Positions 13,243 through 43,840 of a stretch of 64,000 nt of DNA are shown here, in pieces. Both the position numbers and the translations under genes were made by a program. The stretch is from NCBI GenBank assembly GCA_030706405.1, contig JAUZOO010000010.1, positions 82,127 through 146,126 of the forward strand, in the 5' to 3' direction. The notes under the pieces are model-generated. The model was not told the origin of the DNA. It saw only the letters and a list, made by a program, of their open reading frames with translations, and made no database searches. How positions within the stretch are numbered: position 1 is the stretch's first letter; each line of letters starts with the position of its first letter. Source of the DNA: Bacteroidota bacterium. Lineage in GTDB: Bacteria; Bacteroidota; Bacteroidia; Bacteroidales; JAAUTT01.

Positions 13243-13252
13243 ATTATTAAAG

Positions 13253-13341
13253 TAATTAAGTGATTAAGGAATTAGGTGATTGAGATAAATCTTAATTATA
13301 TAATTACTTAATCACTTAGTTTCTTAATTATTTCATCACTT
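13253..13341. repeat. Inverted pair of octamer tandem arrays
   Basis: TAATTAAG TGATTAAG GAATTAGG TGATTGAG followed by CTTAATTA TATAATTA CTTAATCA CTTAGTTT CTTAATTA. Confidence 0.75.
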
Positions 13342-13347
13342 ATAACA

Positions 13348-39947: not shown

Positions 39948-41309
39948 TTAGTTATTTTCTTCGAATAATTTATCGAATTCCTCTGAACTAACTTCTTTAC
40001 TTTCAATCGAAACAGTTTCGCGTACATAGTCGAGAACTTTGTCTTCGAACTTACGTTCTACCATACGGCGACGGTCTTCTTCGCGTTTGAGCGATTCGGC
40101 TGCGTAGCTTTCGATGTGTTCGTCCGGAACGTTGAATAAACCGTATTGCTCAAATTGAAGGCGGGTTTGAGCTTTGGCGAATTCAATCATTTCTTCTTCA
40201 GAAATTGTCAGGTTATTATTTTTGATAAGCTTATTTTGAATAAGCTGCCATTTCATATCGTTTTCGAACTTTCCAAATTCCTGTTCGATTTGTTCTACGG
40301 TGAATTTACCTTCGTTTGAAGTGAAGATCCAACGTTTGAGGAATTCAACCGGCAGGTTAAACTGAGCCTTGCCTAATAAAGCGGCTTTGGCATCGAGGCG
40401 GAATTTATATTCGCTTTCGCGCGACAGATTGGCCTGAATTTCTTCTTCAATCTTGGCTTGGAATTGTTCGTTTGTAGTTACGTTTCCTTCGCCATAAATT
40501 TTATCGAAAAGTTCCTGGTTAATTTCGGCTTTTTCGAATTTAGAGATGGTAGCGATGGTGAGCTGGAAATCGGCATCAATGCTGCCAACTTCTTCTTTCT
40601 TCAAGTGAAGGATAGAAGCCAGTTCTACATCGTTAGGATATGCTTTGCGAAGGTTGAAGGAAAGAACAGCATCTTTTTGGAGGCCCATAAATTGCTTTTT
40701 GATCTCTTCGTCCTTAACAAATTCAAGGTAAAGAGTTGATTCAGCAGCAAAGATTCCGCCTTCTTTTATAGCACCATTTTCGAGTTCAACGATTGCACCT
40801 TTAAGCATTTCCTTGCCATCGACAATCGATTCGCAGTTAACAAATGCGCCGTAACGACGGGCATAGTTGTCCGAATAGGTCTCGATAAGTTTGGCGTCGG
40901 GCTTAATGGTATAGCTGGTCAGTTTATCGTCTTTCGAAAGGCTGAGTTCAAATTCGGGAGAGAGTCCGAGGTCGAAAGCGAATTCGAATTCAGTAGCATT
41001 TTCCCAGTCGATTTCTTTTTGTTCTTTTTCGCTTGGGATAGGATCGCCTAAAATATTTAATTGTTCTTCCTTAATATACTTCATCAAATTCTCCGAGAGG
41101 AGTTTGTTGATTTCTTCAACCATCGCGGTTTTTCCGTAGAGTTTATTGATCATTCCGGCCGGAACTTTACCGGGACGGAAGCCGTCGATACGGGCTTTTT
41201 TCTGATAGTCGCCAAGTACCTTTTTTACTTTCGGCTCATAATCTTCTTTGCTGATTTGAACTTTCAAGACTGCGTTTAATTCGTCTTTCAACTCTTTCGT
41301 AATGTTCAT
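39948..41309 (-). CDS. tig: Trigger factor
   Basis: GFRPGKVP ribosome-binding loop; upstream of clpP; ATG at 41309. Confidence 0.95.
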   Translation of the reverse strand: MNITKELKDELNAVLKVQISKEDYEPKVKKVLGDYQKKARIDGFRPGKVPAGMINKLYGKTAMVEEINKLLSENLMKYIKEEQLNILGDPIPSEKEQKEIDWENATEFEFAFDLGLSPEFELSLSKDDKLTSYTIKPDAKLIETYSDNYARRYGAFVNCESIVDGKEMLKGAIVELENGAIKEGGIFAAESTLYLEFVKDEEIKKQFMGLQKDAVLSFNLRKAYPNDVELASILHLKKEEVGSIDADFQLTIATISKFEKAEINQELFDKIYGEGNVTTNEQFQAKIEEEIQANLSRESEYKFRLDAKAALLGKAQFNLPVEFLKRWIFTSNEGKFTVEQIEQEFGKFENDMKWQLIQNKLIKNNNLTISEEEMIEFAKAQTRLQFEQYGLFNVPDEHIESYAAESLKREEDRRRMVERKFEDKVLDYVRETVSIESKEVSSEEFDKLFEENN

Positions 41310-41401
41310 CACTCAGATTTTAATATATGTTAATCATTTTACAAAAAAAGCCTTAACTGTCCGATTGTTAAATCGGTAGTTGAGGCGCTTGTGCAAATAA
41401 G

Positions 41402-41483
41402 TGCGGATGAAGGGACTCGAACCCCCACTCCTTACGGAACCAGATCCTAAGTCTGGCGCGGCTACCAATTACGCCACATCCGC
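41402..41483 (-). tRNA. tRNA-Leu, anticodon TAG
   Basis: GCGGATG acceptor stem, CCAGA-CTTAGGA-TCTGG anticodon arm, long variable arm, GGTTCGAGTCC T-loop; TACCTTTG promoter element upstream. Confidence 0.97.
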
Positions 41484-41923
41484 ATTCTCTAAAAACCGGT
41501 GCAAAGGTATTCATTTTTTGTTTTTTAAGAAATTTCGAACGAAAAAAAGTCTTTTTTTCTTTGCATCGAAACCAAATGGCTTATATTCAACCTCAAACCA
41601 GCAATTTATGAACCGATAATTCGCTTATAAAGTTTTTTGGGTGTTAATCCCGAAGAACTTTGAACCGCTTGTTAATATAAAATAGATGCTTAAACCTGGT
41701 TTTGGAAGGGAGGCGTAAAAATGATTTTATGCCGCTAAACATCCTTAGTACAATACGATCAAGATAGCTGCATTTCTTTTTTTGATCTGAATTGAATGCT
41801 TTCCGATCGGGGCGAAGGCATCCAGCTTTCGTTCCGGTTAATTTTTATGGAGGTTTATAACAAACAGAAAGTCAATGGCCGGATAACTTGTGCAGGAAAT
41901 TACTTAACTGACCCAAAAACTAT

Positions 41924-42235
41924 AATCCTGCTATTGGGATTTAAGATAATTTTGAAAGAAACTCATTTCCCAAGTTTGGGATTTTAGATAAATTTAAAAT
42001 GAACACTTATCCCAAATAGCGAATTCGAGTTTTTTCTTTGTGGAACGATAATCCCAAATGTCGGATAAGTGTTTTTTCAAAGTTTTTGTAAAATCCCAAC
42101 TGGCGGATTGGGCAAAATTCATCAGAAAACCATAATCCCAAATGGCGGATAAGTGCTTTTTGTTTGTTAATCTGAAATCCGACACTTGGGATAATCGATT
42201 TTTTATGCATAATGTCTTATCCCAAACGGGCAATC
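41924..42235. repeat. Array of eight 18-bp quasi-palindromes (WATCC-N8-GGATW) at an exact 42-bp period
   Basis: Cores start at 41924, 41966, 42008, 42050, 42092, 42134, 42176, 42218, separated by 24-bp AT-rich spacers. Confidence 0.85.
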
Positions 42236-42562
42236 GGTCTATTAATATCCAGCTGGCTATAAAAACGATCCGGATTGTGTTCCCTTCAAACTAAAACATC
42301 GGCATACCCGCGAGGTTTGTCATTTCTCACCTTCACATTGTTCGTTCGTCAGAATTTGGTTAGTTTAAACGTGTTAATAATTGGCATAACCTTACTGTTT
42401 TCAATAATAGTCTCCTCCGACCAATAAAGTTTAGCGAAAGATTTTACAAAAAAAATCTTTTTCCCGATAGGGTAAATCCTTCTTAAGAAATCATAATAAC
42501 AGAAGCAGAAATACAGATTCTGTTCAACCCCGGGATACGCATTAAACTTAAAAACTTAAGCC

Positions 42563-43840
42563 ATGAAAACACATAATAACATTTTCGCACTAATAGCTGC
42601 TTGCTTGATGGTGGCTCTCTTTACAGCATATTTTAATCCGGTTATGGCAGGCGACGACCAATTCTCTGTAATACGCGGAAAACTGGTTGATCAGGCAAAC
42701 AAAAAACCACTGATGTTTGCCAATATCTATCTCGATAATACCGGCATCGGAACAGTATCGAACGGCGAAGGGGAATTTATTCTCAAAGTGCCCGTCGATG
42801 AGCAAAACCATCCGATAAAAGTCTCCTACATGGGGTATCGGTCGCAGTCTTTCAACTTTAACGACCTCTCCCGCGATTACAACGTTATTCCAATGGAGCT
42901 GGAGGCAATTAATATTAAAGAAGTAATTGTACGGACGAACGACCCGATTTCGCTGATACGTGGAGTTATTAAAAATATTCCCGAAAATTATGGACGGACA
43001 CCTTATGTAGGCACAGCATTTTATCGCGAATCGGCCATGCAAAACCGCCAATACGTGGGCGTTGCCGAGGCTATCCTTTCCATTTACAAATCGGATTATG
43101 GCAACGAAATGGCCGAAGATCGTATCAAAGTATTTAAAGGTCGCAAAAGTCAGGATGTAAAACGAATGGATACGCTCGTGTTTAAACTTCAGGGAGGGCA
43201 TTACGTAGCTACACTGCTTGACTTAGCCAAAAGTCCCGAAACGTTTATGCTCGAAAAATTCTTCCACGTTTACAACTATCAACCCGTTACCACCACTAAC
43301 ATTGAAGGCCGCGAAACCTATGTAATCGATTTTGCTCAACGTAAAGAAATAGACGATGCTTTTTATACCGGGCGGTTATATATCGATGTAAATACACTGG
43401 CAATCAAGAAAGCAGAATTCTCTATCAGTCCGTACGGGTTAAAATTTGCCGACCAATACCTGGTAAAGAAAAGGCCGATAGGATATTCTGTTAAAACAAC
43501 AAGCGGCCATTACATGGTTGATTACCGCGAAATAAACGGAAAATGGATGTTAAACCACGTGCGATACGAAGTAAAATTTAAGGTCGATAAAAAACGACTG
43601 TTTTCGTTCAGCAAAACATATACTTCAACCGTCGATTTGGCTATGACCGACAAAGATACCGTGAACGTTGCCAAATTTAAACTCCGTGAAAGCGTAAAAC
43701 CCAATGATGTATTCATCGACCATGTGAGCAGTTTTTACGACGAAGATTTTTGGGGCAGCTATAATATTATTAAACCCGAGGAACCTATTGAAGCAGCCAT
43801 TGAACGGATAGGCAAACGCCTGCAGAAATATCAGAAATAA
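42563..43840 (+). CDS. Exported protein with carboxypeptidase-like regulatory domain
   Basis: Signal peptide, GTVSNGEGEF, SYMGY, AFYRE, YDEDFWGSYNII. Confidence 0.85.
   Translation: MKTHNNIFALIAACLMVALFTAYFNPVMAGDDQFSVIRGKLVDQANKKPLMFANIYLDNTGIGTVSNGEGEFILKVPVDEQNHPIKVSYMGYRSQSFNFNDLSRDYNVIPMELEAINIKEVIVRTNDPISLIRGVIKNIPENYGRTPYVGTAFYRESAMQNRQYVGVAEAILSIYKSDYGNEMAEDRIKVFKGRKSQDVKRMDTLVFKLQGGHYVATLLDLAKSPETFMLEKFFHVYNYQPVTTTNIEGRETYVIDFAQRKEIDDAFYTGRLYIDVNTLAIKKAEFSISPYGLKFADQYLVKKRPIGYSVKTTSGHYMVDYREINGKWMLNHVRYEVKFKVDKKRLFSFSKTYTSTVDLAMTDKDTVNVAKFKLRESVKPNDVFIDHVSSFYDEDFWGSYNIIKPEEPIEAAIERIGKRLQKYQK

Follow-up and report, generated by a model that had tools for sequence, protein, structure and literature searches.

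A phased array of eight 42-bp quasi-palindromic units in a Bacteroidota genome, a candidate one-face DNA platform, and its relation to a class of 21/42-bp arrays upstream of two gene families

The window in which the array lies is the whole stretch of DNA that was analysed, 64,000 nucleotides in length (G000:C2:82127-146126, on contig C2 of genome G000). To the left of the array, the minus strand encodes clpX, clpP, tig and tRNA-Leu, and to its right is the gene for a secreted protein of 425 residues. The eight neighbouring genes (histidine kinase, clpX, clpP, tig, CarboxypepD_reg-like, ABC ATPase, tatC and recQ) include no recombinase, par, rep or cas gene. The features of the locus are as follows, the core starts on the plus strand (41924, 41966, 42008, 42050, 42092, 42134, 42176 and 42218) being the first coordinates of the core lines.

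41401..41483, minus strand: tRNA-Leu(tag), a neighbouring gene outside the element
41550..42460, no strand: approximate lineage-specific insert with the array (~880 bp), placed by congener spacing
41805..41839, plus strand: terminator-like hairpin, 15 pairs and then a T-run
41924..42235, no strand: array of eight 42-bp units, each an 18-nt quasi-palindromic core and a 24-nt A+T-rich spacer
41924..41941, minus strand: core 1, with the strong half TTGGGAT on the right of the plus strand
41966..41983, no strand: core 2, nearly symmetric, TTCCCAA-GT-TTGGGAT
42008..42025, plus strand: core 3, ATCCCAA on the left, right half degenerate
42050..42067, plus strand: core 4, ATCCCAA...CGGAT
42092..42109, plus strand: core 5, ATCCCAA...CGGAT
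42134..42151, plus strand: core 6, ATCCCAA...CGGAT
42176..42193, minus strand: core 7, flipped, ATCCG...TTGGGAT
42218..42235, plus strand: core 8, ATCCCAA on the left, right half degenerate
42563..43840, plus strand: downstream gene for the 425-aa secreted protein, with a CarboxypepD_reg-like N-terminal domain

The tRNA-Leu gene has an upstream element, TACCTTTG at 41502-41509, which we take to be its -7 box of the Bacteroidota type. An earlier note on this DNA described the array as upstream of tRNA-Leu. This is correct as a position but goes no further, as the tRNA has its own promoter box and four congeners keep the tRNA without the array. In these congeners (G003, G004, G008 and G002) the gap between tig and the downstream gene is 436-474 bp, versus 1250 bp here, and the promoter box of the tRNA is retained, as is the sequence just upstream of the right-hand gene. 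Therefore, the ~880-bp segment that carries the array is a lineage-specific insert. Congeners that lack the array have orthologues of the CarboxypepD_reg-like gene in the same position. No DNA similar to the array was found in 40 relatives, and a search of 12 congeners for the paired-core pattern returned two matches with 2 mismatches, neither of them array-like. The absence of the array from the 12 searched congeners indicates that it is dispensable for the downstream gene. Control matches to the paired cores in G006, a member of the same genus, were rejected as long (TAGGGGC)n heptamer tracts, which are present in that genome at no fewer than five loci (C1:99691, C3:201709, C7:95519, C7:473002 and C7:490608), one of them upstream of tig. 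A short A+T-rich tract with 8/16/24-bp periodicity (TRF) is located at 13250-13342 of the window.

Read in a common orientation, the cores follow the pattern W-ATCCG-NNAN-TTGGGAT-W, with a strong half TTGGGAT (ATCCCAA on the other strand) and a weak half ATCCG. Their dyad layout is 5-6-5, of the form ATCC(S)-N6-(S)GGAT. The eight cores at an exact 42-bp period proposed by the earlier note are all present, with 18 nt followed by exactly 24 nt and no indel. Its assignment of units 1 and 7 as reversed also holds: they point the opposite way to units 3-6 and 8, with unit 2 being almost symmetric. Likewise, spacer 2 was correctly recognised as an inverted relative of spacer 4 (42 nt at 79% complementarity), and unit blocks including their spacers recur inverted at 70-79% complementarity with the phase kept. 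The stem in the focal cores, as read from the sequence, is limited to 4 bp, position 5 pairing C with C or G with G. The mean information content, pooled over 16 units from this array and a second one on contig C19, amounts to 1.02 bits for each column of the 18-nt core and to 0.42 for those of the flanks. With at most one mismatch, ATCCS-N6-SGGAT matches 494 sites in the 4.93-Mb genome. The distances between pairs of sites up to 260 bp apart concentrate at 42 (9 pairs), 84 (7), 126 (5), 168 (3) and 210 bp (2), and any other distance occurs at most twice. The phased eight-site array is far beyond chance.

A metagenomic relative provided insights into how the array changes. A contig from soil-metagenome run X1 (2966 nt, depth ~9) aligns to 41808-42700 at ~90% identity, with 80 differences and 8 gaps, and is unlike the window to the left of 41808. 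Pieces matching the same sequence were found in run X2. None of the 8 gaps is located within the 312-bp array (P = 0.014, with gaps taken as uniform over 755 non-coding bases). The substitutions listed for 41924-42175, which are those covered by the test and leave 58 further differences outside it, comprise 6 across the 108 bases of the cores and 22 across the 144 bases of the spacers (Fisher p = 0.016). All but one of the 6 core changes go toward the consensus, among them both changes in core 3 (42018 and 42022). The order and orientation of the units are the same in the relative, and no joints were seen in the run contigs, which come from two to four runs and drop rare variants. From these substitutions and gaps, the cores and their spacing look constrained and the spacers appear to drift. 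The terminator-like hairpin at 41805-41839 sits where the homology of the relative begins (41808), and no plus-strand gene lies upstream of it.

The second array is located on contig C19 at 108178-108490. It has eight 42-bp unit positions, the outermost two of which are degenerate, and shares with the C2 array the core, part of the spacers and a stretch of 18 identical nucleotides. Both arrays keep an exact period of 42 bp without indels. Their flanks share nothing above chance, with no common leader or tail. The C19 array is preceded by tRNA-Ala, at a distance of ~290 bp, and followed 40 bp later by a DUF6261 gene. In this genome the focal core is carried by these two arrays only. The earlier note had allowed that the region might prove unique; the C19 paralogue and the 48 arrays of the class described below show otherwise. 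On C19 the cumulative GC skew has a local maximum at ~105-115 kb, close to the array (108.3 kb).

Wider searches returned mostly other kinds of repeat. A scan of genome contigs for three ATCCCAA at 42-bp spacing found more than 119 loci, 80 of which were examined. These were mostly 7-mer, 21-mer or coding repeats; a minority were 21-bp palindromic arrays from several phyla, and their flanking genes share nothing. Intergenic tandem 21-bp units of the form WATCCCAA-N4/5-TTGGGATW are present in L051, L065, L066, L121, L084, L100, L102 and L078, in metagenome-assembled genomes of Tannerellaceae, Saprospiraceae, Prevotellaceae, Verrucomicrobia, Hallerella and Planctomycetaceae, next to unrelated genes. 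Metagenome contigs scanned for the array pattern gave two loci, both unrelated.

The genome was also scanned for self-matching at lags of 8 to 129 in 168-bp windows, with a self-match of at least 52% required at each lag. The numbers of regions were 28 at lag 21, 39 at 42, 23 at 63, 26 at 84, 13 at 105, 16 at 126 and 8 at 41, and every other lag had 0-5. When merged, these regions give 48 arrays of period 21, 41 or 42, and no open frame spans 42 of them. The arrays fall into several sequence families, each with 2-6 dispersed copies in unique flanks, and many have a short palindrome in each unit. An array on contig C16 is among the members of the class. With crude ORF calls, 21 arrays were placed between tandem, 12 between divergent and 7 between convergent gene pairs (40 classified); the remaining arrays are inside long open frames (5) or at contig ends (3). 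Since 7 of the 40 classified arrays lie between convergent genes, not all arrays can be promoter elements. One array at C12:373271-373860 (590 bp, ~25 units of 21 bp, core TTCCAATTGGAA) separates a divergent cold-shock-domain gene from the gene for a DEAD-box helicase; its core recurs at C1:72986 in an array of 540 bp, between the gene for a LuxR-type regulator and a gene of a ~205-aa family. Two long arrays of period 77, at C3:194144-196036 and C8:17-3069 (~25 and 40 copies), have a common ~47-nt repeat, are at or near contig ends and resemble CRISPR arrays of the long-repeat type.

Pfam searches and an all-against-all comparison of the 93 ORFs flanking arrays link the class to gene families. 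The genome has exactly 5 DUF6261 genes, and each of the 5 is preceded by a 41/42-bp array that ends 40-130 bp before the ATG. DUF6261 itself is sporadic, being present in 6/60 genomes of the order and in 5/400 of a sample of the phylum. In ten other genomes, the top lag within 1300 bp upstream of DUF6261 genes is 41, 42 or 83 at 14 of 19 loci (9/12 and 5/7, with a partial match, L248, left out), and none of 22 downstream controls has such a lag. Each DUF6261-linked array has its own sequence. The focal array resembles these arrays in its 41/42-bp unit and is homologous to one of them (C19), and it differs in position, not being located 40-130 bp upstream of a DUF6261 start. No DUF6261 gene or remnant was found beside it, as tblastn gave no match better than E = 0.55. 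By its gene context, the focal array is an orphan copy without a DUF6261 gene, upstream of a CarboxypepD_reg-like gene of outer-membrane type.

The second family consists of proteins of ~205 residues with a helical N-terminus, an FN3-like C-terminus and no Pfam match; related clusters in the ESM Atlas are labelled FN3-containing. Of its 6 copies in this genome, 5 are preceded by an array (at C1:72986, C12:236619, C12:330341, C12:532825 and C20:77680). The sixth copy, near a contig end on C20, has 455 bp of upstream sequence, and no array lies within it. In ten other genomes of the order, 21/42-bp arrays precede 19 of 22 loci among the matches with a returned locus, scored on at least 400 bp of upstream sequence (which four loci were too short to provide) for a top lag of 21, 42, 63 or 84 with a self-match of at least 50%. 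The downstream controls gave 0/26. Several copies adjoin defence-type genes (Mrr_cat, SLATT_5, AAA_21 ATPase). Two further small families are each found twice downstream of arrays.

The class thus keeps its unit length and its position, before DUF6261 and ~205-aa genes in this Bacteroidota order, and its sequence turns over. The statement in the earlier note that no adjacent gene explains the array is valid for the focal copy, but the paralogous array and the class as a whole are tied to DUF6261 and to a second gene family. The class is previously undescribed: a search of the published literature found no description of such arrays and no functional study of DUF6261.

We considered whether the DUF6261 protein could bind the arrays. 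It is predicted to fold as a bundle made up of helices alone (pLDDT 90.5). A Foldseek search gave no match at E <= 0.001, and the top VIA match, a four-helix bundle with Z 10.0, is under the level that is meaningful for helical proteins. The DUF6261 profile matched no PDB sequence below E = 0.13, and there was no match in PHROGs or NCBIfam. Judging from the model, a helical bundle of a generic kind that matches no particular structure and shows no evident fold for binding DNA, DUF6261 is not an obvious binder candidate.

Two minus-strand frames are open throughout the C2 array, which could suggest a protein with a 14-aa repeat, an outcome that the earlier note had named as counting against its readings. 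However, none of the six frames of the homologous C19 array is free of stops, the longest open stretch being 52 aa, and this rules out a coding repeat. The open frames of the C2 array are explained by the repetition of a stop-free core. Judged by its frames and those of its homologue, the focal array is non-coding. At the RNA level, Rfam found only the tRNA at the locus, plus one sub-threshold microRNA match. Coverage by RNA run X8 is limited to 41300-41468, and RNA runs reach the tRNA side alone. A Bacteroidota-type -7 box (TAATTTTG) is located in spacer 1 at 41947-41954 on the plus strand, the single such match in the array; with 5 matches found against 3.7 expected, it is no more than chance would give. 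For many of the DUF6261-linked arrays, folding is much stronger than that of shuffled sequence (z as low as -8.6), and the sense strand is the more stable one in 9 of 19. Sense-strand folding shows no excess in 4 of the 19, indicating that not all arrays of the class have a palindrome in each unit.

We propose, with a probability of about one half, that the focal array is a one-face platform that acts at the DNA level, in protein binding or in DNA architecture. This reading is favoured by the strict four-turn phase, the conserved half-sites with drifting spacers, the absence of indels relative to the ~90% identical relative, and the lack of strand bias in the folding of related arrays. The populated lags are confined to multiples of 21 bp, each of them a whole number of 10.5-bp turns, as alignment on one face of the helix requires. 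The whole-turn lags, the absence of a strand preference in folding and the 4-bp core stems favour a role of the DNA rather than of a transcript. Eight imperfect dyad sites four helical turns apart would all face one side of the helix, regardless of the orientation of each site. The conserved half-sites and the 5-6-5 dyad layout suggest a dimeric, sequence-specific binder common to the C2 and C19 arrays. Such a protein may occupy the sites cooperatively and form, upstream of the neighbouring promoter, a nucleoprotein structure that is one-sided or wrapped, and the same putative protein would also bind the C19 array before the DUF6261 gene. The earlier note offered three options for the array, and the phased protein-loading platform among them fits best; the other two, taken up below, are unsupported.

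The array sequences differ between loci, and a platform therefore needs either many binders or one binder that reads shape. Extending the proposal to the whole class, we suggest more tentatively a gene-plus-array module in one Bacteroidota order, with outliers in the phylum, in which DUF6261 and ~205-aa genes are obligatorily preceded by arrays and the geometry (21 or 41/42 bp), not the sequence, is read. The reader of this geometry could be a shape-reading or oligomerising architectural protein, or intrinsic curvature could take its place. Orphan copies such as the focal array might then bring new genes under the same control.

The main rival to the platform is a neutral or selfish minisatellite. 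Dispersed arrays of this kind would arise by slippage and by template switching at palindromes, would persist or spread with no host function and would owe their 21/42-bp quantum to the generating mechanism. Several observations are consistent with this: the focal array is lineage-specific, being absent from the syntenic site in all four syntenic congeners and, in a similarity search, from 40 relatives; the several families have 2-6 dispersed copies each with unique flanks; some arrays elsewhere are 88-96% identical between units and thus young; and arrays occupy every class of intergenic region. A minisatellite does not readily account for cores that are conserved beside spacers near saturation, for core changes in the relative that go toward the consensus, or for the absence of indels in A+T-rich spacers with T-runs. 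The strong and repeated association with two gene families, upstream only and across families of the order, also argues against it, as do the lack of a Y1/RAYT transposase and of a common leader or tail among copies. We therefore regard a minisatellite as unlikely, though it deserves to be weighed seriously.

Improbable in our view is an element that acts as RNA, either a transcribed leader or a non-coding RNA of small hairpins that is bound by protein or cut to unit size. The strong folding of many DUF6261-linked arrays and the -7 box in spacer 1 could be taken to favour an element of this kind, but folding is without strand preference, the box is at chance level and Rfam recognises the tRNA only. 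In addition, the focal cores give stems of 4 bp, and units in mixed orientation would yield different RNAs. The non-CRISPR repeat-spacer RNA array suggested by the earlier note is not supported, given the same short stems and the spacers, which are interrelated by duplication and inversion.

The other unsupported option was a set of recombination sites shuffled by inversion. A site-specific recombination array, shufflon- or integron-like, would have segments that invert, and its sites would resemble the inverted arms around a directional centre seen here; unit blocks with their spacers indeed occur in both orientations with the phase kept. However, none of the eight neighbouring genes is a recombinase, and the inverted blocks are only 70-79% complementary, so that any such events are old. 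The ~90% identical relative has the same order and orientation, with no joints seen in contigs, from which rare variants could be missed. Segments of 42 bp are generally too short to synapse. Active shuffling is thus very unlikely. Marginally less credible still is a replication origin, an iteron set or a partition centromere of the sopC type: the anatomy does match sopC of the F plasmid, but the array is chromosomal, lies between housekeeping genes without adjacent par or rep genes, and has a paralogous copy and 48 arrays in its class. An oriC or iteron origin in particular is rejected, as cumulative GC skew along C2 does not turn (has no minimum) at the array, dnaA is on contig C12 and no rep gene is nearby. 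A CRISPR array, which would have repeats of at least ~23 nt, unrelated spacers, and cas genes or a leader, is not supported, given the 18-nt flipping core, the related spacers and the absence of neighbouring cas genes.

Plasmid centromeres, iterons and a few operators have helically phased arrays of binding sites, in which the sequence and its binder co-evolve. Here, 48 arrays are present in one 4.9-Mb genome, and in many genomes two families without an assigned function carry them upstream at most of their loci. If the proposed module is correct, it would offer a way into DUF6261 and the FN3-like family, and an example in Bacteroidota in which regulation by DNA geometry could be put to the test. 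Further arrays could in that case be found genome-wide by a simple signature, their lag spectrum at 21/42 bp.

No known system that we compared combines mixed orientation, a strict 42-bp phase, sequence turnover and a link to gene families, but several have some of these properties. REP elements and BIMEs are likewise extragenic imperfect palindromes, clustered and in both orientations. To our knowledge, BIMEs do not keep a strict 42-bp phase. The Y1 (RAYT) transposase, PF01797, has 0 matches in this genome, which is 99.7% complete, and control genomes were positive. As far as the cited account describes them, REP elements carry a GTAG or CGTC tag and number tens to hundreds of copies (PMC3733652), whereas the focal cores have neither tag and their family consists of two arrays. 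The absent Y1 transposase, the missing tag and the presence of only two arrays count against a REP/BIME-RAYT system.

BrickBuilt of Porphyromonas gingivalis is, in the description cited, an always-intergenic minisatellite/MITE with tandem short units, many copies per genome and promoter activity (PMC4596501). The likeness is that of a Bacteroidota intergenic element with tandem short units and many copies per genome. BrickBuilt units, as described there, are 23 nt long without spacers, and the copies share leader and tail subunits with inverted-repeat ends. In contrast, the flanks of the focal array and its paralogue share nothing, each 42-bp period combines a conserved core with a variable spacer, and the class is tied to gene families.

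Archaeal Lrp-like regulators, according to the cited account, bind sites two or three turns apart and wrap DNA (PMC2995911). Operators of this type and the iterons of plasmids and phages place their sites on one helix face at whole turns, and the two-turn spacing in that account matches the 21-bp arrays of our class. The arrays described here differ in having no linked Rep or Lrp gene, 8-25 units instead of 2-7, and a sequence that varies by locus. The closest parallel in anatomy is sopC of the F plasmid, which in the cited description consists of 12 directly repeated 43-bp units that each contain an inverted repeat of 16 bp to which SopB binds (PMC3177203). As described, it shares with the focal array tandem units of about four turns (43 vs 42 bp), an inverted repeat that is a possible dimer site, here 16 bp long, and a unit number of about ten. 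The sopC repeats, in that description, are direct and lie beside sopAB on a plasmid, whereas the focal array is chromosomal, has units in mixed orientation with diverged spacers, lacks adjacent par genes (parA/parB) and is accompanied by many unrelated sister arrays.
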